A program made the translations under genes and the position numbers. DNA of 43,404 bases, from the NCBI GenBank assembly GCA_964016885.1, contig CAXHJY010000806.1:1-43404 (forward strand), written 5' to 3'. Under the pieces are notes generated by a model. The model ran no database searches, was not told where the DNA came from, and was given only the letters and a program-made list of their open reading frames with translations. Source of the stretch: Eledone cirrhosa (Eukaryota). Of this stretch, positions 2,864-36,255 are shown piece after piece. Each line of letters opens with the position of its first letter. Position 1 is the first letter of the stretch.

Positions 2864-3367
2864 ATCTTCAGCATGATGCTCAAGCAGGCCCCAGCAGATC
2901 TTGATGATGAGGATGGAGTCTATATCAACTACTGTCTTGATGGCAGCCTGTTTAATCTTTGTCAACTACAGGTTCAAACAAAGACCCTGGACTGATCCGA
3001 GACGTCCTCTTTGCCGACGATGTTGCTCTTGTTGCCCTCTTGTTGCATGGTTGAATGCTCCATATTGGTGAAGTCATGCTGCTATAATAAGCATTGCCAC
3101 CAACCCCAGCCAGTCTGCCACTGCTTTGTAGAGCATCACTTCCTGCTTCGCTTCAGCTTACACCTGAAGAAGGGTACCACCCTTCCTATATCACCATTGA
3201 TGAGTTCACCTACTGGGGGTAGATCGACAGGGAAATCAGTAACAGATTGGCAAAGGTGAGCAGTGCATTTGGTAGACAGTACAAATGTATGTGGAGCAAT
3301 AAACACCTAATGAAGGGTACCAAGATCAGAGTGTACAGAGCCATAGTCCTTACCACCCTCCTATATA
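2864..3367 (+). mobile_element. Degraded RTE-clade LINE reverse-transcriptase fragment
   Basis: Broken translation IFSMMLKQA..DLDDEDGVYINYCLDGSLFNL..LQ..TKT / IRDVLFADDVALVA / EISNRLAKVSSAFGR...W....L...TKIRVYRAIVLTTLLY, typical of RTE RT; frameshifts and deletions. Confidence 0.85.
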
Positions 3368-4408
3368 TACATATAAATATATATATAGATGATATATAGA
3401 TGATATATATATATATATATATATATAGTTTCATAACATTTCAAATAATTTGATGTACATTTCCCTTGAAACATGTGTAAGGAAATAAATATGATTTAAA
3501 AGATAATTTTTCCATCTATATACTTGTTTATATTTATTCTGTGTTATATCTGCATCTCCAAATCTTTCACTTCAAACTTATATTATAATATATAAACACA
3601 TCAAGCTAATTCTGAAAAGACATGCCTATTATATACTATCATATGTAATTCTCTACTTTCCTTTGAGCTTTGTATATATAGTTTTATCTTTGCTATATAT
3701 ACATATATAAATATAAACATACATATATATAAATATATATACAATAAAAAAACTAATACATATAAACAAAACTTCATCAATTTTGCAAGTTTTCTACAGC
3801 TTGATACTCTTCCTAACACCAATCACTTTATTGAATGTACTGAGTGCATTTTATTAGGCACCATCACTAGAGGTGTTGTCATGCCCTTGACATAATCTAA
3901 TAATCTTTATGAATAGTCATTGTTCTGTGATAAACAATGATTAATATATGATTACATAGAAAGAATATGTTAGATGGAAACTAATTAGTGTTATAGTTTA
4001 CATGAGTGGGTGTGTGTGTGAGAGTCTCTGTGTGTGGGTGTATGTGTGTGTGTGTGTAAGAGAGAGAGAGAGAGTCTGTTTGTGTGTGAGAGAGTCTCTG
4101 TTTGTGTGTGGGTGTATGTGTGTGTATCTAAACTCTGTTATATTTCTTACATTAGAACAAAGACACAGATTTGTAGGACAGGGATTCAGTCAATTGTGAG
4201 GTCTTTAGTATATAACCAACACCAGTTTTATCATCTCTGAAGGGAGGAAAAGCAAAGTGCAACCAAACATCATATATACATGTGTTTGAAGTAGAATGAT
4301 TCAACAGTGAAAGAATACATACATTTATATAACAAATATGTACATAGCTGGCAAGTTTATTTAGCCGTAAATTCACAAATTCTAGTTACATAACAACCTC
4401 CATAGAAA

Positions 4409-4444
<36 letters not shown>

Positions 4445-4445
<1 letters not shown>

Positions 4446-5081
4446 CAAAGGAATTGTGGTAAGGAACAAAATGGACCATAATGCACCAGAGTACTCAATA
4501 CTTAGGGTAGTAGAGTGGGAAATAGGAAAAAGTATGACCCCGACGGCAGAGCTCAAGCCGTTTCGACGGCTATTTCTGGACTAAATTAGAATTTTTAGCC
4601 TGGTGAATAAATAGCCGAACTTTTCAAGGGGGTACTTCCTTATATGGGAAGATTGTAGTTGTCAAGAGGATTGGTTAAAATTTGTTGTAAAAACAAATGA
4701 GTCTATTTGGTGGGTGGTAGGGGTGGCTGAACTTGCCTGTAGAACAATAGGGGAGTGAGTGGAGCGGTCAAGCAAGCGTTGAATGAAGTGGGGAGGGAGG
4801 TTATAGAATAGGTAAATCGAAAGAGAGTAGGAGACAATAAAAGATACTAGAAAGAAATTTAAAAAAAAAATAAATATATAAAATTAGATAGTAAGAAAAT
4901 GATAGACTTATTTGTGTTTACAACAAATTTTAACCAATCCTCTTGACAACTACAATCTTCCCATATAAAGAAGTACCCCCTTGAAAAGTTCGGCTATTTA
5001 TTCACTAGGCTAAAAATTCTAATTTAGTCCAGAAATAGCCATCAAAACGGCTTGAGCTCTGCCGTCGGGGTCATACTTTTT

Positions 5082-5086
<5 letters not shown>
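4445..5086. mobile_element. Penelope-like element remnant with inverted pseudo-LTRs (arms 4522-4706 and 4902-5086), inside a (TA)n tract
   Basis: 185-bp inverted repeat with about 6 mismatches and a 195-bp spacer; (TA)n on both flanks; each arm has a hammerhead fold. The Penelope assignment is inferred from this combination. Confidence 0.7.
4530..4637 (-). ncRNA. Type I hammerhead ribozyme motif with U3-A8 variant core
   Basis: Minus strand: AAGUACCCCC-[UUGAAAA]-GUU-CGGCUAUUU...AAAUAGCCG-UC-[GAA]-ACGGC-UUGAGCUCU-GCCGU-C/GGGG-UCA-UACUU. Helices I, II and III all pair; GUC cleavage triplet at plus 4542-4544. Confidence 0.75.
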
Positions 5087-5121
<35 letters not shown>

Positions 5122-5127
<6 letters not shown>

Positions 5128-5281
5128 GGTTGGCTGAAAAGTTCATAGGCTGACTATGTAGGATTGATGCTAGAGCTGTTGCATTGCTTCTTTCCAGGGA
5201 CTATGTTGCAAAATAAACCTCATTTGGTCATTTCATGAGAGTATCTTGGTCAGCCTATGAAATTTTCAGCTGAGCCTCATA
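5122..5281. mobile_element. Tc1/mariner-type MITE
   Basis: ~33-bp terminal inverted repeats TATGAGGGTTGGCTGAAAAGTTCATAGGCTGAC / GTCAGCCTATGAAATTTTCAGCTGAGCCTCATA, embedded in (TA)n. Confidence 0.8.
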
Positions 5282-5283
5282 TA

Positions 5284-5351
<68 letters not shown>

Positions 5352-5437
5352 CATATATATACATACACACATCTATTTGATGGATGATAGATTGCTAAGT
5401 GTTTACTCAACAACTTCCTTCCATATCTTAGATCAGT

Positions 5438-5848
5438 TTAACCATTTCAAAACCAACCCACATGAAACTGTCCCAATTCTATGATGACAAATCTCATTTT
5501 AATGTATATATATTTAAATAGAAAATAATGTTATAGAAGTATATCTTTATTAAAAATCCAAGCTTAATAATTTATTTTACTAAACTTCTTCAAACTGTTG
5601 ATTCATTATAAAATTAATTAAAAACACATAGATGGTGTGTTTGAAATAATTTTGAAAATAACCAAAATTTAGATACATTTAGTAATATAAGAATTTTTCT
5701 AATTATTAGACGTGTGTTTGGAACATAAACGTTTTTACATAAACTTATGATGGAAGGTTTTGGTTTATATATAGACTATATAAAATGAGAGATTTTTATG
5801 TCATAGAATCATGGGTGGTCTCAGGTGGGTTGATATTGAAAGAGTTAA
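5438..5848. mobile_element. TTAA-flanked (piggyBac-type) MITE; related partial copies at about 8310-8700, 9266-9460, 28071-28281 and 40647-40910
   Basis: TTAA at both ends; imperfect TIRs TTAACCATTTCAAAACCAACCCACATGAAAC / GTCTCAGGTGGGTTGATATTGAAAGAGTTAA; internal CCAGCTTAATAAT motif recurs elsewhere. Confidence 0.65.
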
Positions 5849-6748: not shown

Positions 6749-7073
6749 CTGAAGTTAAAATAACATAGATTTATGATAACAAAGCAATGTTGCAAATATT
6801 TTTAATAGTTTCTTGAAATAAAAAAATATATTTTCTACAACTTTCGGATCTGAATTGGTAACTCCAGCACCCCTTGTAGGATGTGATTAAATGAGCAGAT
6901 CTCCTCACACCTTTTTTTCTTATGGAAATATTTATATATAAAAAAAGAAAATTGTATATGAGCTAAAATATGCAACCACTGCCTGGGAAATACTTTAGTG
7001 CTGTAATTTGTTCCCCCAGCACAACATGGATATAGGGACATGATATATAATTTAGCAAGTGGCTTGAACTTAC

Positions 7074-7151
7074 CTTGCTGATGGAGAATCTCTTTGTACA
7101 GGACCAAGATGACTTTGAATTTCTTGGAGACGACTATGATAATCTCGAGAA
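7074..7151 (-). CDS. PIKFYVE: PIKfyve exon: SRDYHSRLQEIQSHLGPVQRDSPSA(S)
   Basis: CTTTTTATCACAG acceptor, AAG/GTAAGT donor, 78 nt, phase 2-2. Confidence 0.92.
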
Positions 7152-7456: not shown

Positions 7457-7552
7457 CTGAGAGCATACGCAATTATGGAGCTTGGTTCTGTATCATAGAC
7501 AATTACAGGAATACGTTCACATTTAGCCAGTAGAGGATGTTCATGGGCTTCA
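7457..7552 (-). CDS. PIKFYVE: PIKfyve exon: (F)EAHEHPLLAKCERIPVIVYDTEPSSIIAYAL(S)
   Basis: AATTGTAG acceptor, CAG/GTAAGA donor, 96 nt, phase 2-2; EPSSIIA(Y/F)ALS is a FAB1-family hallmark. Confidence 0.96.
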
Positions 7553-8383
7553 CTACAATTACACAGATTATGGGAAAATATGACTAGATATTCTTTCAAT
7601 ATATCTAGAAAGATACATTATGAAAAGAGTTGGTATGAAACTAAACACTTTAGTCTATTTCCTCCATCATTAATGCATAACACTTTAACAAGACATTCTT
7701 TATCATCATCATCATCATGCTAGCAAGAGTTGGACGGGTCCATACAGATCAAGTCAGTACTAAAGCAGAGTCCCTGATCTCACAGGTAGGCCAGAGATCT
7801 GTGTCTCGCTTATGTATGGTCTCATATTCCATTGAGTGCTCAGGAGAGGTTATCATGTCATTGAGACAACTGAGGGTCCTCCCAACACTGTTTGGCAAGA
7901 TTTCTATGGCTGGATGCCCATCCTATCACCAACCACTTCATAGCGTGTACTGGGTGTGTTTATCTTGTAAATCAGCAACACTAGGGAAGTTGTCATGTCC
8001 TTGACATGACTGAAGGGTCCTCCCGACAATCTTGAAAAGTAAAACATAGCACTAGGACTTCATAACATTAAAAAATAAAGTCTTTAATTTAGTTTACTGC
8101 AAACATTTTTGGAATGATCTCTCCATTAGTAAAGATTCTATAGACATTAGAATTAACAAACCTATCTTTAACTATTTTCATTACAGGATGTAATTACAGA
8201 CAGTAACATTTACAGGAGCATACTCTTCATATAAATTCTGCTAATTGATGTTAATTAGTTCAATTTTTCAATAGCAAAAATTGAATCATTATCAATTAAT
8301 CACCTACATTTTAAGTTGTTTTTTACAGATGTTTATCCTAATACGTTCATATTTATCTAAAAGCCTTTCATTATAATTTTATG

Positions 8384-10820: not shown

Positions 10821-11339
10821 CTGGATGATGATAAAGAAAGGTTTAAAAACAGTTAATCCATTGTGATAGTAAAAACAAAATAGCTACAATGGCATAGTTT
10901 AAAAAATTAAGAATGAAGAAAGTTAATAAATATTTATTAGCAAAACACTTAACTTTCCTTGAAGATATATGTCTGTATGGACCTGTAACTCTTGGTAGAG
11001 TCGTAGGGGCACCATAAGAAAATATAGCATATCGTTAAATTTAATGGAACCCATCCCCTCACTAAGTCTGGAGAGAGAGAATATATCCCAGTGCTGGACT
11101 GGACTTTTTTTTATAGACTTCGAAAGTATGAAAGGCAAAGTTGATCCCAACAGGATTTGAGCACAGAGAGCTGGAATGAATACTGCAAAGCATTCTATCT
11201 GAAATCCTGCCAAGTCTGATAAGAGGACATACATATGTCACCATACATGAAATGTAGTGAGAAAATAGTATCTCATGATATTAGAAAGAAAATGTATGAT
11301 GATAATAATATATCACGTATATTTGTATATTTACATATA

Positions 11340-12017
11340 TATATACGTGAACGGCAAAGCATAAACGAACTAAGGAAAAAATTAGAGATAAGAGGGATCA
11401 GATGTTGTTTACTCGAGAGAAGGCTACGTTGGTATGGACACGTGATGCGCATGAAAGTCGATAGCTGTATAACAAAGTGCAGGGCAATAAAGATAGACGG
11501 TAGCCACGGAATAGGCAGACCTAGAAAAACCTGGGACGAGCTGATAAACTCCGACCTCACACACTTACACCTCTCCAAGACAATGTCACTGGACCGAGAC
11601 CTTTGGCGGTACTCAGTAATACAGAAGACCCGCCTTACCTAAATATATAGTAAAACCTACTCCAACCAGTAGGCATCTCTAACAAAATACACCCCGTCCC
11701 ACCACCACCACCCCCACCCCATCCACACCACCCCGTTCTATGTAAAGTTATGTTGGTGCCGCGCCATAGGCCGAAACAAATGAGATCGTGTAGGTGTCAC
11801 GACAAAAAAACACACAGTCCACGCTGTAATGTGGCCGTGTAGGCAACACGGTAAAAACCTCCCAGCCCCACACTGTAAATGTGGTTGGTGTTAGGAAGGG
11901 CATCCAACTGTAGAAAACCTGCCAGACAGTCCTATGCGAGCAAGACAATCACTCTTGCCTCAAGTGGGACTACCCCCGTCCAAACCCATGCAAGCGTGGA
12001 ACACGGACGTTAAACGT

Positions 12018-17255: not shown

Positions 17256-18015
17256 ATCATCATCATCATCATCATCATCACCGTTTTACGTCCGTTCTTC
17301 CACGCTAGCATGGGTTAGACGGGTTGTCCTGTTGTGGGCAGTGCCTGGTCGGCTGACCATGCCTTGCTCATACAGGAACTGATTTGGGTTGATTTCTACA
17401 GCTGGATGCCCTTCCTAACACCAACCTCATTTACAGTGAGTGCTGGGTGCTTTTTCGTGGCGCCTACACACCACTTTACAGTGTGGGCTGGGTGCTTTTT
17501 TGCCGTGGCACCTCCACGACCACCTTGCAGTGGGGGGTGTGGGGGCATATTGTCTATATGCTTCAGCTTGAACCCATGAGAGGTGGGTACTCTGTATTAC
17601 TGCGTGACGCCAGAGGTGTAATTGGGTAAGGTCGGCTTTTATCACCTCATCCCAGATCATCTTGGGTCTCCCCACTCCGCGGTTTCCATCGACTTCTAGT
17701 GCTCTGCACCTTTTTATGCAGCTGTCATCCTTCATACGCATCACATGTCCATACCAGCGCAACCGCCTCTCCTGCACACAGCATTTGATTCCTCTTATGC
17801 TCAGTCGCTCTCTCAATTCATTTATGCTTTGTTGTTCACGTATATTACTGTTACACATCCATCGGAACATGCAGGCTTCGTTTCTCTCTAATCTACCTAA
17901 GTCTTCCACCTTCAGCGCCCAGGTCTCACTACCATGCAACATCGCTGTTCGGATACACGCATCATACAGTCTGCCTTTCATTTTGAGGGAGAAGCCTTTG
18001 GATAATAAGGGAGAG
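17256..18015 (-). mobile_element. 5'-truncated RTE-clade LINE with largely open ORF C-terminus
   Basis: PLLSKGFSLKMKGRLYDACIRTAMLHGSETWAL...RRLRWYGHVMRM...GRPKMIWDEVIKADL; (GAT)n tail; 3' UTR also matches 167-347. Confidence 0.92.
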
Positions 18016-19310
18016 TACATTGGATAATTCAGTCCAGCATAATGGTAAGGAAGAGTTAACTACAGTTTTTTAAATTATAAAGCTCATCGTAAAAAGGAAC
18101 AAATGTCAGACCATTTTTGTTTGCCAAGTGTATCTTTGTCATGTGAATCCGATTTTTAGAATAGTTATACAATATCTCTTTGTGTTGCAAGAGGCAACTA
18201 AAAGTGTTGGCACCAAGAAGGGTATCTGGCTGTAAGACATTGTCTCAAAACATTCTGCCCGATGCTCTCTAGCATGGAAAAGTAAACATAAAACAATGAC
18301 AATGATGAAACAAATATGCCTCATGCAAATTAGACTGGCTATTTCAGTTAAATTCTGCTTTGTGTTTGTTGTAAGCTCTAGGTGGAAGGACAGGGGTAGT
18401 TGTCTTCTGTTAAATAGTCAACTAGTTGTGAATCATGTAAAAGAAATCTTTTATATTTTCCTGTTCATGAAAAGAATAATAAAGCCTGTTTACACTTGCT
18501 CCTTTTCACAGTAATGCTTATAATTAAAAATCTGTAGTTGTATCTACATTAAATTCATCCTAGATTTCTAAATACATATTTTAATATATAATTGCATAAA
18601 TATTTGTTATTGAATGTAGTCAAGGTACACTATTCCTGAAAACTAAGAACAGAATGGGTCTGCTTCATTACTTATGCTATATGTCTGCTCAATTAGGGCT
18701 GACCTAAAGGTAAATCAATATCAAACAAATTCCTATAACTGGTGCAGCTAGTCATTGTGGTGCCACTCTAAATGTTTGACTGTGTCTATCATGGCATATC
18801 AGTGGACCTTGAAAATATTTAGAAGTGTCCATCTTTTCTCCAGGAGGGAGTAAACAGTAATACCAGCATATTAGAAGATATGTGATCCCCTCCTCCACCC
18901 ACTCACCCCCCAAAAAATCAAAAAAAAAAAAAAAAATACATGACGTGTGTCATTCTAACACTAAATATATAACCATACAGTTAGGGATGTATTCTGATTG
19001 AATAAATCAGACTAAGATATTTTCTCTTCAGGAACAACACAGTAATTGTTTAAAGGTTTGGACTGATAATATTGTAGCTAGTAGAAAAACATGGCTTTTA
19101 GTTCAGCTTATAATCAGATTACACTAAGGAAACAATGTTTCTATTAGTTTTTCCATCGTTGATACTATTTGCCAGTTGCAACTCTTGACACAAGGAACAA
19201 TGTAAAATAAAGAACACAACATACCACCTGGTCCAGGAATTGAACCAATGACCTTATGATCTTGAATTTAACACCCTAACCAATATGCCACATAATGAAA
19301 TAATACAAAC

Positions 19311-28393: not shown

Positions 28394-28636
28394 CTGAAAC
28401 AGAAAACAAAATTAAATACAGAAACCTTGATTAGTAAAACAAATAAATCAACATAGTTATAAGGAAGAGTTATCTAGGGTCTGTTTCAAGCTTGGGGGGT
28501 CGTTAGGCCAGTGCTTACCCTGGTTCTCGTGATGTGAAGCAACAGAGAGTACAAGACTTCCTTCTGGACAGGACACCAGTCTATTACAGGGTTAAACCTC
28601 CAGCTACTGCTGGTACTCATTTTTAGCTGAGTATAC

Positions 28637-31600
28637 TGCTAGAAATAACAGCTAAATAAGACAGCTACTTCAGCTAAATAGGGGAAACCTCATGGAGGTC
28701 CATAGGTGTGCTAGATATAGCAGCTGAATAAGGGCAACATCATGATGGTCCATAGGTGTGCTAGAAATACCAGCTAAATAGGGGCAACCTCATAATGGTC
28801 CATAGGGGTGCTAGAAATAGTAGCTAAATAAGGGGAACATCATGGTGGACTATAGGTGTGCTGAAAATAGCAGATAAATAAGAGAAAACTCGTGGTCCAT
28901 AGCTGTGCTAGAAACATCAGCTAACTTGTGGTAACCTCATGGTGGTTAATAGGTGTGCTGGAAATACTGGCTAAATAAGGGGAACATCATATGGTCTATA
29001 GGTGTGCTAGAAATAACAGCTAAATAGAGGGAACCTCAAAGTATTCTAAAGGTGTGCTAGAAATAGCAGTTAATAGGGGGAACCTCATGGTGGTCAATAG
29101 GTTGCTAAAGAAAGCAGATATATAGAGGGAACATCATTATGGTCCATAGGTATGCTAGAAACATCAGCTAAATAGGAGGAATCTCATGGTTGTCCATATG
29201 TGAGATAGAAACAGAAGCCAAATAGATGTAAACTCATGGTGGTCTATAGGTGTGTTAGAAATAGCAGCTAAATAGGGGGAACCTTATAGTGGTTCATAAG
29301 TGTTCTAGAAATAGCAGCCAATAGCAGGAACCTCAGCGTGCTCCATAGGTATGCTAGAAATAGCTGCATAATAGGGGGAACTCACAGTGGTCCATAGGTG
29401 TGCTAGAAATAGCAGTTAATAGAAGGAACCTCATGGTGGTCAATAGGTGAGCTAAAAAAAGCAGTTATATAGGGGGAACATCATGATGGTCCATAGGTGT
29501 TCTAGAAATAACAGCTAAATAGGAAGAACCTCATAGTGGTCCATAGGTGTGCTAGAAATAGCAGCTAAATAGGGGGAACCTCATGGAGGCCCATAGGTGT
29601 GCTAGAAATAGCAGCTGAATAGGAGGAACTTTATGATGGTCCATAGTTGAGTTAGAAATAGCAGCTAAATAGGGAGAACCTCATGGTAATCCACAGGTGT
29701 GTTAAAAATAGCAGCTAAATAGCGGCAACCTTATAGTGGTCCGTAGGTGTGCTAGAAATAGCAACTAAATAGAAGAAAACCTCATGGTGGTCTATAGGTG
29801 CGCTAGAAATAGCAGTTGAATAGAGGGAATCATGGTGGTCCATAGGTGCTAGAAATAGCAGCTATATTTTGGGAACCTCACGGTGGACTATAGTTGTGCT
29901 AGATATAGCAGCTAAATAGGAGGAGTCTCATGGTGGTCCATAAGTATGCTAGAAATAGCAGCTAAATAAGGGGAACATCATGATGGCCCATAGGTGAGCT
30001 AGAAATAGATGTAACCTCATTGTGGTCTACAGGTGTGTTAGAAATAACATCAAAATAGGGGGAACCTTATGGTGGTCCATAGGTGTGCTAGAAATAGCAG
30101 CTAAATAATTGGAACCATAAGCTGGTCAATAGATGTGCTAGAAATAGCAGTCAAATTCAGGAACCTCATGGTGTTCCATAGGTATGCTTGAAATAGCTCC
30201 AAAATAGGGAGAACTCACAGTGGTCCATAGGTGTGCTAGAAATAGCAGCTACACCAGCTAAACAGAGGAAAGCTCCTGTGGTCCATAGGTGTTCTAGAAA
30301 TAGCATCTAAATAGGGGGAACCTCATGGTGGTCTATAGGTGCTAGAAATAGCAGCTACTTCAGCTATGGGGAACATCATGGTGGACCATAGGTGAGCCAG
30401 AAATAACAGCTAACTAAGGGAACCTCATGGAGGCCCATAGGTGTGCTAGAAATAGCTCGATTATGGACCATCATAAGGGAGAACCTCATGGTAATCCATA
30501 GGTGTGTTAGAAATAGCAGCTAAATAGGGGCAAATTTAGAGTGGTCCGTAGGTGTGCTAGAAATAGCAGCTAAATAGAAGAAAACCTCATGGTAGTCTAT
30601 AGGTGTGCTAGAAATAGTAATTTAATAGGGGAATTCATGGTGGTCCATAGGTGTGCTAGAAATAGCAGCTAAATAGGAGGAACCTCATGGAGGTCTATAG
30701 GTGCATTAAAAATACTTGCTAAATAAAGGGAACATCATGATGGTCCATAGGTGTGCTAGAAGTAGTAGTTAAATAAGGGGAACCTCATGGTGGACTATAA
30801 ATGTGCTGAAAATAGCAGATAAATAAGAGAAAACTCATGGTGGTCCATAGCTGTGCTAGAAACATCAGCTAAATAGTGGGACTTCATGGTTGTCCATAGG
30901 TGAGCTAGAAATAGAAGCTAAATAGATCTAACCTCATGGTGGTCTATAGGTGTGTTAGAAATAGCATCAAAATAGGGTGGTCCATAGGTGTTTTAGTAAT
31001 AGCAGCTAAATCATTGGAACCTTAAGGTGGTCAATAAGTGTGCTAGAAGTAGCAGCCAAAATCAGGAACCTCATGGTACTCCATAGGTATGCTAGAAATA
31101 GCAGCTACACCAGCTAAACATAGGAAAGCTATTGTGGTCCATACGTTTTCTAGAAATAGCAGCTAAATAGGAGGAACCTCATAGTGGTCCATAGGAGTGC
31201 TAGTAATAGCAGCTACATTAGCTAAAGAGAAGGAACCTAATAGTGGTTCATAGGTTTGTTATAAATAGCAGCTAAATAGGGGGAATCTCATAGTGGTCCA
31301 TAGATGTGCTAGAAATTGCAGCTACTTCAGCTAGGGAGAACATCATGGTGTGCTGGAAATAGTAGCTAAATAGGAATAATCTCATGCTGGTCCATAGGTG
31401 TGCTAGAAATAATAGCTAAATTTTGGGAATGTCATGGTGGACTATAGGTGAGCCAGAAATAACAGCTAACTAGGGGAACCTCTTAGTGGCCCATAGTTGT
31501 GCTAGAAAAAGTAGCTGAATAGGAGGAACCTTATGATGGTCCATAGTTGAGCTAGAAATAGCAGCTAAATAGGGAGAACTGTAGGTGTGCTAGAAATAGC

Positions 31601-33085
31601 AGCTATATTTTGGGATGGGAACCTCATGGTGGTCCATAGTTGTGCTAGATATAGCAGCTAAATAGGAGGAACCTCGTGGTCTATAGGTGTGTTAGAAATA
31701 CTAGATAAATAAGAGGAACATCATGATGGTCCATAATTGTGCTAGAAATAGCAGCTAAATAGGGGGAACCTCAAAGTGGTCTAAAGGTGTGCTAGAAATA
31801 GCAGTTAATAGGGGGAACCTCATAATGGTCCATAGGGGAGCTAGAAATAACAGCTAAATAAAGGGATCCTTATGGTGGACTATAGGTGTGCTGAAAATAT
31901 CAGATAAATAAGAGAAAACTCATGGTGCTCCATTACTGTGCTAGAAACATCAGCTAAATAGTGCAAACCTCGTGGTAGTTAATAGGTGTGCTAAAAAAAG
32001 CAGTTATATGAGGAACATAATGATGGTCCATAGATGTGCTAGAAATTGCAGCTAAACAGGAGGAATCTCATGGTTGACCATAGGTGAGCTAGAAATAGAA
32101 GCTAAATAGATGTAACCTTAGGGTGGTCTATAGGTGTGTTAGAAATAGCATCAAAATAGGGGGAACCTTATGGTGATCGATAGATGTGCTAGAAATAGCT
32201 AAATAATTGGAACCTTAAGGTGGACAATAGGTGTGCTAGAAATAGCAGCCAAAAGCAGGAACCTCATGGTGCTCCCTAGATATGCTAGAAATAGCTGCAA
32301 AATATGGGGAACTCGCAATGGTCTATAGGTGTGCTAGAAATAGCAGCTACACCGGCTAAACAGAGGAAAGCTCTTGTGGTCCATAGGTGTTCTAGAAATA
32401 ACAGCTAAATATGAGGACATCATAGTGGTCCATAGGTGTGCTAGAAATAGAAGCTAAATGGGGGGGAACCTCATGGTGGTCGATAGATGTGCTAGAAATA
32501 GCAGCTACATCAGTTAGGGGGAAACTCATGGTGGTCCATAGGTGTGTTAAAAATAGTAGCTAAATTTGCAGAACCTCATGCTGATCCATATGTGAGCTAG
32601 AAATAATAGCTAAATTTTGGGACCGTCATGGTGGACCATAGTTGAGCCAGAAATAACAGCTAACTAGGGGAACCTCTTAGAAATAGCAGCTAAATATGGG
32701 AAACATCATGATGGTCCATAGGTGTGCCAGAAATAGCAGCTAAATAGGGGGAACCTCAAAGTGGTCTAAAGGTGTACTAGAAATAGCAGTTAATAGGGGG
32801 GACTCATAATGGTCCATAGGTGCGCTATATATAGCAGTTAAGTAGGGGGAACTTCATAGTGGCCCCTAGGTATTCTAGAAATAGCATCTAAATAGGGGGA
32901 ACCTTAATGGTGGTCCACAGGTGTGCTAGAAATAGCAGCTACATCAGCTAAACTGGGGGACCTTATAGTTATCCATAGGTGTGTTAGAAATAGCAGCTAA
33001 ATATGGGAAACACATGGTGGTCCATAGGTGTACCTGAAATAGCAGCTAATTAGGACGAATCTTATGGTGGTCCATAGGTGTACTA
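28637..33085 (+). repeat. Intronic satellite, ~50-bp unit, roughly 90 diverged copies
   Basis: Consensus GGTGGTCCATAGGTGTGCTAGAAATAGCAGCTAAATAGGGGGAACCTCAT. Confidence 0.97.
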
Positions 33086-33087
33086 CT

Positions 33088-33196
33088 AGGGCTAAATAAC
33101 ATCAGTCCTAGGTCTAAACTACATCAGTCCTGGGGCTATACATCTGTCCTGGGTTTAAACAACATCTGTCATTGGGCTAAACAACATCTGTCCTGG
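33088..33196 (+). repeat. Short ~21-bp tandem repeat (about 5 copies) capping the satellite
   Basis: GGGCTAAACAACATC(A/T)GTCCT-like units. Confidence 0.8.
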
Positions 33197-34193: not shown

Positions 34194-34800
34194 CGTCCAT
34201 TATTCCATGCTAGCATGGGTTAGACAATTTGTCCCGTTGTGAGTCAAATCATGTCAGATGACCATGTCTTGCTCATGCAGAACTGTTTCTGGCTTGTTTT
34301 TTATGGCTGGACACCCTTCCTAATGCCAAACAAATTTAAAGCATGGACTTATACATATATATATATATCTTTTTAAGTTAAGCTCAATGAGACAAAATAT
34401 TCTTAACTTGAATTTGAAAACAGAATTGTGTTCATGCTCTACTCAGATAGAAAATATGGATAATGATGATAATGATGATAGTTATGATAATGGTGATTGA
34501 GTATCTTCTTTACCTGTTCACAGAGACACTACTTATAAACCCACTATTAACTAAGGTCTTAAGTAAATTGGATAGTCCAATTTGCATATATAATACATTC
34601 TTGGCAGCTAGTTTGATTAATAAATTAAATGTGTGTTAACATTGTTTTGTTTCAACGCTGCACTGTACTACAGAATATACCTGTAGATCAATACTGTATG
34701 TATAGACAGATATAAACATCTAGTCTTTATATACAATGTCTGCATAGAGAGAAAAATAGGGACCAATCTAACTAGTTTCAATGCTGTGTTAATATAGTGG

Positions 34801-35940
34801 ACAGTTAAAGAGGGTGCTAAAAATCTGATGACACTCCAACAAAAGGACAGAGGGTACTGAATCCCTGATGACACCCCAATACAGTTAAAGAGGGTACTGA
34901 ATGACTGATGACACCCCAATACAGTTAAAGAGGGTACTGAATGACTGATGACACCCCAATACAGTTAAAGAGGGTACTGAATCACTGATGACACCCCAAT
35001 ACAGTTAAAGAGGGTACTGAATGACTGATGACACCCCAATACAGTTAAAGATGGTACTGAATCACTGATGACACCCCAATACAGTTAAAGAGGGTACTGA
35101 ATGACTGATGACACCCCAATACAGTTAAAGATGGTACTGAATCACTGATGACACCCCAATACAGTTAAAGAGGGTACTGAATGACTGATGACACCCCAAT
35201 ACAGTTAAAGATGGTACAAAATCCCTGATGACACCCCAATACAGTTAAAGATGGTATTGAATCACTGATGACACCCCAATACAGTTAAAGATGGTACTGA
35301 ATCACTGATGACACCCCAATACAGTTAAAGAGGGTATTGAATCACTGATGACACCCCAATACAGTTAAAGAGGGTACTGAATCACTGATGACACCCCAAT
35401 ACAGTTAAAGATGGTACAAAATCCCTGATGACACCCCAATACAGTTAAAGATGGTATTGAATCACTGATGACACCCCAATACAGTTAAAGAGGGTATTGA
35501 ATCACTGATGACACCCCAATACAGTTAAAGATGGTACAAAATCCCTGATGACACCCCAATACAGTTAAAGAGGGTACTGAATGACTGATGACACCCCAAT
35601 ACAGTTAAAGATGGTACTGAATCACTGATGACACCCCAATACAGTTAAAGATGGTATTGAATCACTGATGACACCCCAATACAGTTAAAGATGGTACAAA
35701 ATCCCTGATGACACCCCAATACAGTTAAAGAGGGTACTGAATGACTGATGACACCCCAATACAGTTAAAGATGGTACTGAATCACTGATGACACCCCAAT
35801 ACAGTTAAAGAGGGTACTGAATCACTGATGACACCCCAATACAGTTAAAGATGGTACAAAATCCCTGATGACACCCCAATACAGTTAAAGATGGTATTGA
35901 ATCACTGATGACACCCCAGTACAGAAACAGAGGGTACTGA
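34801..35940 (+). repeat. 40-bp minisatellite, 28.5 copies
   Basis: Unit ACAGTTAAAGA(G/T)GGTA(C/T)TGAAT(G/C)ACTGATGACACCCCAAT, exact 40-bp phase with no indels. Confidence 0.98.
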
Positions 35941-36255
35941 GAAATTTGTTCTCTGTTAAATCATCACAAGATGTTATAAGTTAAATGCAGCAAATTTTCC
36001 CCAGAATCTGATCACAAGTAACAATAATATAAACATTTGAATTTACAAACCACATGAAACTACATTAGCAAAATATTCTTGAAAAGTACAAAACAGCACT
36101 ATGACCATATCACTTTAAAAATAGAGTATTTAACACTGCAAAATTTCACAAAGATTTATCCACAAGTAAAGATACTATAAACATTTGAATTAACAAACTT
36201 GTTTTTAGATACTTTCAGTTAAATCATTAGACTTTGTAAAATGTTAAATACTTAC

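Follow-up and report, generated by a model that had tools for sequence, protein, structure and literature searches.

A hammerhead motif at positions 4530-4637 (minus strand) of the window, the 43,404-nt stretch of Eledone cirrhosa DNA analyzed here, very probably belongs to the pseudo-LTR (pLTR) of a Hydra-clade Penelope-like element (PLE). The copy in the window is best explained as a truncated head-to-head insertion, the inverted arm of which is predicted to silence the ribozyme in the host transcript. The features of the insertion are listed below, with distances past the predicted cut given as positive numbers.

4412..4444, unstranded: (TA)n target microsatellite, left side
4442..4902, minus strand: long arm, comprising a 5'-truncated PLE 3'UTR, the hammerhead and an 80-nt tail, and ending at about +100 past the predicted cut
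4442..4521, minus strand: PLE tail between the preferred 3' ends at +20 and about +100
4530..4637, minus strand: type I hammerhead motif of the PLE (U3 at 4627, A8 at 4622, G12 at 4564, GUC at 4544-4542)
4899..5086, plus strand: short inverted arm, complementary to the long arm and ending at +20
4971..5078, plus strand: second hammerhead copy, damaged (G12 to A at 5044, helix II G to A at 5041)
5084..5124, unstranded: (TA)n target microsatellite, right side

Every structural element described in a first-pass annotation of this DNA was found in the sequence and fold. On the minus strand, helix I is formed by 4631-4628 paired with 4541-4538 (CCCC/GGGG), the core UUGAAAA (4627-4621) is followed by G10.1 (4620) paired with C11.1 (4565), and helix II stems of 9 bp and 7 bp, GAAA (4564-4561) and helix III were all located, with cleavage predicted between 4542 and 4541, just 3' of the GUC. 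The isolated motif is organized as a type I hammerhead, with three helices around the core and open at helix I. The core residues U4, G5, A6, N7, A9, G12, A13, A14 and H17 and the pairs A15.1-U16.1 and G10.1-C11.1 are all present, and positions 3 and 8 form a Watson-Crick pair (U3-A8). A search with a type I descriptor in which either C3-G8 or U3-A8 was permitted, as had been suggested with the original claim, matched a single site across the window (4530..4637) and none in 100 block-wise dinucleotide-shuffled windows. Because of the zero matches in shuffled windows, the fold is taken as real and not due to chance. The minimum free energy of the motif was -29.5 kcal/mol (z -2.6), with 2 of 200 shuffles equally good, and the hammerhead models of Rfam returned no match over 3500-5700 at E values up to 10. 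As had been anticipated, CUGANGA searches miss the UUGAAAA core; they miss thousands of motifs in this one genome.

The pairing probability of helix I was 0.51 in the isolated motif and 0.10-0.12 with native flanks. While the CCCC/GGGG part of this helix was present as described, the AAGUA/UACUU distal extension proved to be subfamily-specific and not conserved (53.6% of cells paired across 28 copies). The loop III palindrome, which had been linked to cleavage as a dimer, is kept in all lineages, and the dimer cofold was favored in silico (-72.9 versus -59.0); a dimer nevertheless does not appear to be needed, helix III being predicted as stable in the monomer (P 0.95).

The insertion occupies 4442-5086 as a truncated head-to-head copy inside (TA)n, without an RT/endonuclease ORF. 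Its inverted repeat arms (4522-4706 and 4902-5086) were 97% complementary over 185 nt, with 6/185 differences; the inverted copy at 4902-5086 was absent from the first-pass annotation. The short and long arms are joined through a 4-nt overlap at 4899-4902, and the G to A changes at 5044 and 5041 of the plus-strand hammerhead are both at CpG sites. No second copy of the insertion flank was found in the assembly, and there is therefore no empty site for comparison. A small inverted-repeat element (5125-5280, arms 5084-5154 and 5249-5319) adjoins the insertion between (TA)n runs.

Searching the genome with the arm yielded 950 candidates. Of these, 40 were scored, and each was 98-100% identical. 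At locus L031, which represents the window's own subfamily, two direct copies, separated by 3.1 kb, flank a broken ORF. In a sister lineage (B), intact frames of 784 aa (716 aa from the ATG) occur in arrays with a 3,531-bp period, and a hammerhead is present at every array junction. PLE units are 3.1-3.5 kb long, the ORF starts about 195 nt downstream of the hammerhead, and in tandem arrays the tail region continues into the ORF 5' region. The earlier pointer to Penelope elements was correct, in that the motif is linked to PLE ORFs in these arrays.

The sister copies encode a single ORF with motifs of RT (YRDD) and, at the C-terminus, of a GIY-YIG endonuclease (VIY...YIG). As in other PLEs, tandem units form pLTRs, inverted copies are 5'-truncated, and a tail is present. 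The intact frames contain DKT, CxCX5C, CxxC and CxH, without CCHH, in agreement with the Hydra clade, RWR replacing RWK, and (TA)n, the target of that clade, is where 106 of 127 copies end. Two general, non-diagnostic Hydra traits, a canonical C3-G8 hammerhead and a length <3 kb, were not seen. For the PLE protein, 851 relatives were recovered at E values up to 1e-30, the two best of them with identities of 54% and 44%. Pfam gave no family for the 716-aa protein, and the putative RT/GIY-YIG and Hydra-clade assignments rest on motifs.

Several related elements were also observed. At L067-L071 (G000:C1:437199000-437208500 and others) lineage B is very young, with intact 716-aa ORFs and copies 99-100% identical, and it is probably still active there. 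A second Hydra-like PLE family (L036:497 and 3944, L073:3217, L074:3226) has canonical CUGAUGA hammerheads and an endonuclease about 40-47% identical. A more diverged relative of the 3' half of the motif, in which CCGGAG or CUGGAG replaces CUUGAG in loop III, was found at L006, L017, L152 and L193; this relative could root the family.

Among 127 de-duplicated copies, 3' ends were distributed as 58 at +20, 48 at about +100, 8 into the ORF and 13 elsewhere, and no pile of 3' ends was found at the predicted cut. At both fixed ends, which lie upstream of the ATG, the element stops on TAT and (TA)n follows, and 14 of 24 head-to-head pairs consist of one short and one long arm, like the window copy. 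Since these 3' ends lie beyond the cut, the template must have carried an uncut or re-ligated ribozyme.

By analogy with other PLEs, the hammerhead would cut multimeric RNA into units of 3.1-3.5 kb, probably slowly or with the assistance of protein, and transposition would likely be independent of this cleavage. Insertion likely starts with GIY-YIG nicking of (TA)n, after which internal priming of reverse transcription would occur at two UAU sites that lie +20 and about +100 beyond the cut. With each strand primed once, two truncated arms would be left head to head, a proposed mechanism for end positions that were observed directly. We infer two-site priming here as for the PLE of Frangieh et al. 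(2024).

One near-full unit (L200:1684, G000:C2:40828400-40831000) has its 5' end at the predicted cut, continues into the ORF and is joined to a 25-nt inverted short arm. The chance of such a start was estimated at about 5%, given approximately 38 true 5' ends spread over 1,700 nt; the start is only a hint of cleavage, and may instead stem from a fold-back joint. At several loci, 5' ends of ORF-containing units were absent from +1 to +221, one N-bounded case aside, and clustered from +221 to +326, just past the ATG. Such a cluster may correspond to the start of an RNA or to a block bound by protein.

The states of positions 3 and 8 were counted as exact genome-wide pattern matches, which are lower bounds (4,774 matches summed). 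U3-A8 was the majority state, with at least 4,155 matches and thus more than 4,000 motif copies in the genome, followed by the C3·A8 mismatch (at least 575, with 93 among the 100 listed carrying one lineage signature), the U3·G8 wobble (at least 37) and C3-G8 (at least 7). Of 38 matches in the older lineage D, 32 had U3·G8 and the other 6 had U3-A8. A G8A change in a hammerhead is rescued by C3U. The first-pass annotation had read U3-A8 as compensatory. The majority state agrees with that reading, while the C3·A8 matches, the separate U3·G8 lineage and the missing helix covariation described below do not.

A motif-independent tree was built from DNA coding for the endonuclease (37 rows, with 19 lineage-A rows left out). 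Lineage D was followed by an A grade and then by C (100/99), with B nested in C (support for B 100/100, and for C2 plus B 99/95). Lineage B has the shortest branches and intact frames, and in it the U3-A8 pair is regained. Whatever the root, which is unproven, position 3 changed twice, the pair being either broken and then restored or gained twice. The 3-8 pair is thus favored; it is not required for amplification, since the C3·A8 lineage amplified. Rooting with the second Hydra family was rejected as a long-branch join. C3-G8 was also considered as an ancestral covarying state; 6 of the 7 copies, placed in a motif-region tree, were scattered within lineage C, and this state was read as sporadic.

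Of the 15 core positions, 12 were invariant in all five lineages, and only 3, 7 and 8 varied; U4, G5, A6, A9, G12-A14 and C17 were fixed while N7 was A, C, G or T. Variable positions were tallied by hand in lineages A, C1, C2 and B, with the lineage-D flank and tail columns left out. The core and stems (5/62) were less variable than the upstream flank (16/40, p 2.6e-4) and indistinguishable from the tail (7/75, p 1.0). A family alignment, which had been proposed as a check, confirmed conservation of the core and helices among relatives and gave no support for helix covariation: in 28 copies picked by lineage, 2 pairs had double changes versus 4.0 in shuffles, a comparison of low power given that the lineages are only 80-90% diverged. 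Because the motif is no more conserved than the tail and the helices lack covariation, conservation is not necessarily catalytic and may reflect priming or protein binding.

The family hammerhead might accordingly be a catalytically poor vestige, in a region kept as a priming, promoter or protein-binding signal while positions 3 and 8 drift, a possibility that we consider real and somewhat doubtful. The amplified C3·A8 lineage, the prevalence of U3·G8 in lineage D, the lack of covariation and the absence of 3' ends at the cut are all consistent with it. So is the consensus fold, which favors a slipped helix I in which Y3, U4 and G5 pair with G, G and C17; position 3 was paired in this way in 28/28 copies, and the slipped helix would trap positions 3-5. 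Against a vestige stand the unpaired catalytic residues, fixed while N7 varies, the regained 3-8 pair in the youngest intact lineage, and the near-full L200 unit that begins at the predicted cut.

A joint reading of the PLE hammerhead is put forward tentatively, as one that may well prove wrong. The core would have evolved from U3·G8 to U3-A8, then to a broken C3·A8 in hundreds of copies, and back to U3-A8 in the youngest intact lineage. Cleavage would be tunable and selected, and non-essential to PLE replication, and twin-ended insertion would supply each copy with a built-in antisense silencer. If this were true, active ribozymes would be harmless in host introns, and long double-stranded editing substrates would be seeded. 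The family includes natural lineages with different 3-8 states on nearly identical backbones, together with intact young copies. Cleavage rate can thus be compared with transposition history, and the lineages form a natural series in which to ask if cleavage has any bearing on PLE transposition.

The host gene was examined through its two nearest upstream exons.

7457..7604, minus strand: preceding PIKfyve-like exon, with the EPSSIIAYAL motif
7074..7151, minus strand: last recognizable upstream exon of the PIKfyve-like host (AG...GT, phase 2 to 2, no stop; identity putative)

The gene is likely PIKfyve, judging from a weak Pfam match to Cpn60_TCP1 (E 1.3e-5, below cut-off) and from the EPSSIIAYAL motif, which we take to be that of PIKfyve/Fab1. 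Pfam gave no family for most host exons, and a PDB search, a protein search and the ESM Atlas did not confirm the identity. Because each of the two exons (7604-7457, 7151-7074) has an open GT donor at its end and no PIP5K (kinase) domain was matched on the contig, the insertion is probably intronic. The hammerhead lies about 2.4 kb beyond the open donor at 7073, in the host-sense direction.

On the minus strand the antisense (short) arm is transcribed before the ribozyme arm. The insertion region was predicted to fold as a duplex (-353 kcal/mol, z -41.8), and with the inverted arm included, the predicted probability of all five motif helices fell to 0.000. In partial transcripts, 35/38, 77/78 and 107/108 motif bases were predicted to pair with the inverted arm. 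These are equilibrium predictions, and RNA-binding proteins or editing could open the duplex. In the pre-mRNA, the antisense arm would emerge first and capture the ribozyme strand, and the outcome would be a long intronic duplex instead of a ribozyme. Such a duplex is a plausible substrate for A-to-I editing.

An active intronic ribozyme that cuts PIKfyve pre-mRNA, possibly in a regulatory role, had been the central proposal of the first-pass annotation, and the intact core and helices of the long arm and its host-sense orientation are in line with it. We regard it as very unlikely. The motif is one of thousands of retrotransposon copies, and this copy is recent (arms differing at only 6/185 positions), with no sign of locus-specific conservation; helix I is weak even without the arm. 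Cleavage of the likely PIKfyve pre-mRNA is improbable because the earlier-made arm is predicted to bury the ribozyme completely in a duplex of about 185 bp. The locus is predicted to be silent on both strands, because the minus-strand copy would be sequestered and G12 is missing from the plus-strand one. The insertion is most likely of little consequence to PIKfyve itself.

Elsewhere in the window, tandem repeats were found inside the gene at 28600-33100 and 34680-36060 (units of about 50 nt and 40 nt). Putative RT fragments at 11223-11639 (plus), 17430-18059 (minus) and 3223-3396 (plus), which presumably derive from RTE-type LINE reverse transcriptase, were seen together with many SINE-like repeats. 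Short plus-strand frames at 483-892 and 1305-1481 read like protein and had no Pfam or Atlas match.

A MITE with 185-bp terminal inverted repeats and a chance hammerhead fold, which the long, TA-flanked inverted arms might suggest, has next to no probability: it is refuted by the linkage of the motif to a PLE ORF, and the spacers between paired arms range from 138 to >6,000 nt and often contain RT/EN coding sequence instead of being non-coding and of fixed length, the two arms end at different fixed sites, and the descriptor found no match in shuffles. A retrozyme was likewise rejected, as the motif belongs to an autonomous PLE family and not to a short tandem monomer.

The preferred assignment, a hammerhead in a Hydra-clade PLE, was compared with published systems. 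In Craig et al. (2021, PMC8557442), Hydra-clade PLEs (including Hydra-1_Obim) have, like the Eledone family, a single RT-EN ORF with DKT, RW(K/R), CxCX5C and CxxC/CxH and no CCHH, (TA)n targets, a sense hammerhead near the 3' end, and tailed insertions in tandem and inverted arrangements. In File S2, each of the 26 Hydra rows shows a C3-G8 core, a short helix II and a loop III of 1-3 nt, unlike the Eledone family, in which the core is U3-A8, C3·A8 or U3·G8, the helix II arm is 56 nt and the palindromic loop III is 9 nt. Eledone units of 3.1-3.5 kb with a tail of 80 nt also set the family apart, and the Hydra-1_oBim motif given there is a different sequence from the Eledone motif.

The U3-A8 core is already published, by Cervera and de la Pena (2014, PMC4209133), for the Cercyon PLEs of Schistosoma mansoni, with approximately 1,300 matches in that genome. 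Those hammerheads occur in PLE pLTRs and in opposite-strand pairs, and have low activity in vitro. Cercyon elements resemble the Eledone family in the U3-A8 core inside pLTRs, the mostly truncated copies and the dual motifs on opposite strands (spaced 100-700 bp in Cercyon). Cercyon motifs are minimal, with little or no helix III, and need dimers, whereas helix III of the Eledone motif is 5 bp long and predicted to be stable in the monomer.

Frangieh et al. (2024, PMC11167929) describe, for the Poseidon element PAc of Anolis, two internal priming sites, the interval between them forming the tail, hammerhead mutants with unaffected insertion in vitro, and a hammerhead that needs protein for cleavage. 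The Eledone family is similar in its two-site tail, AT-rich targets and hammerhead at the pLTR-ORF junction. It differs in its core (C3-G8 in PAc) and in its ends, where TAT matches (TA)n upstream of the ATG, whereas PAc priming is not homologous to the target and falls inside the ORF. Both Craig et al. (2021, PMC8557442) and Frangieh et al. (2024, PMC11167929) call the role of PLE hammerheads unclear. Intronic ribozymes conserved in hosts and non-LTR retrozymes (bioRxiv 10.64898/2026.07.22.740005) are also type I hammerheads in animal genomes; the Eledone motif, unlike these, belongs to an autonomous PLE family and is neither a conserved single-copy sequence nor a short tandem monomer.

A literature search on hammerhead U3-A8, C3U/G8A and octopus, with subscription papers, Repbase and some supplements outside its scope, found no report of the Eledone family. 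Relative to the systems above, the family is modestly new in two respects: it represents a Hydra-clade hammerhead with a non-canonical core, a long helix II and a helix III predicted to be stable in the monomer, and its lineages span all four states of positions 3 and 8 within one family.
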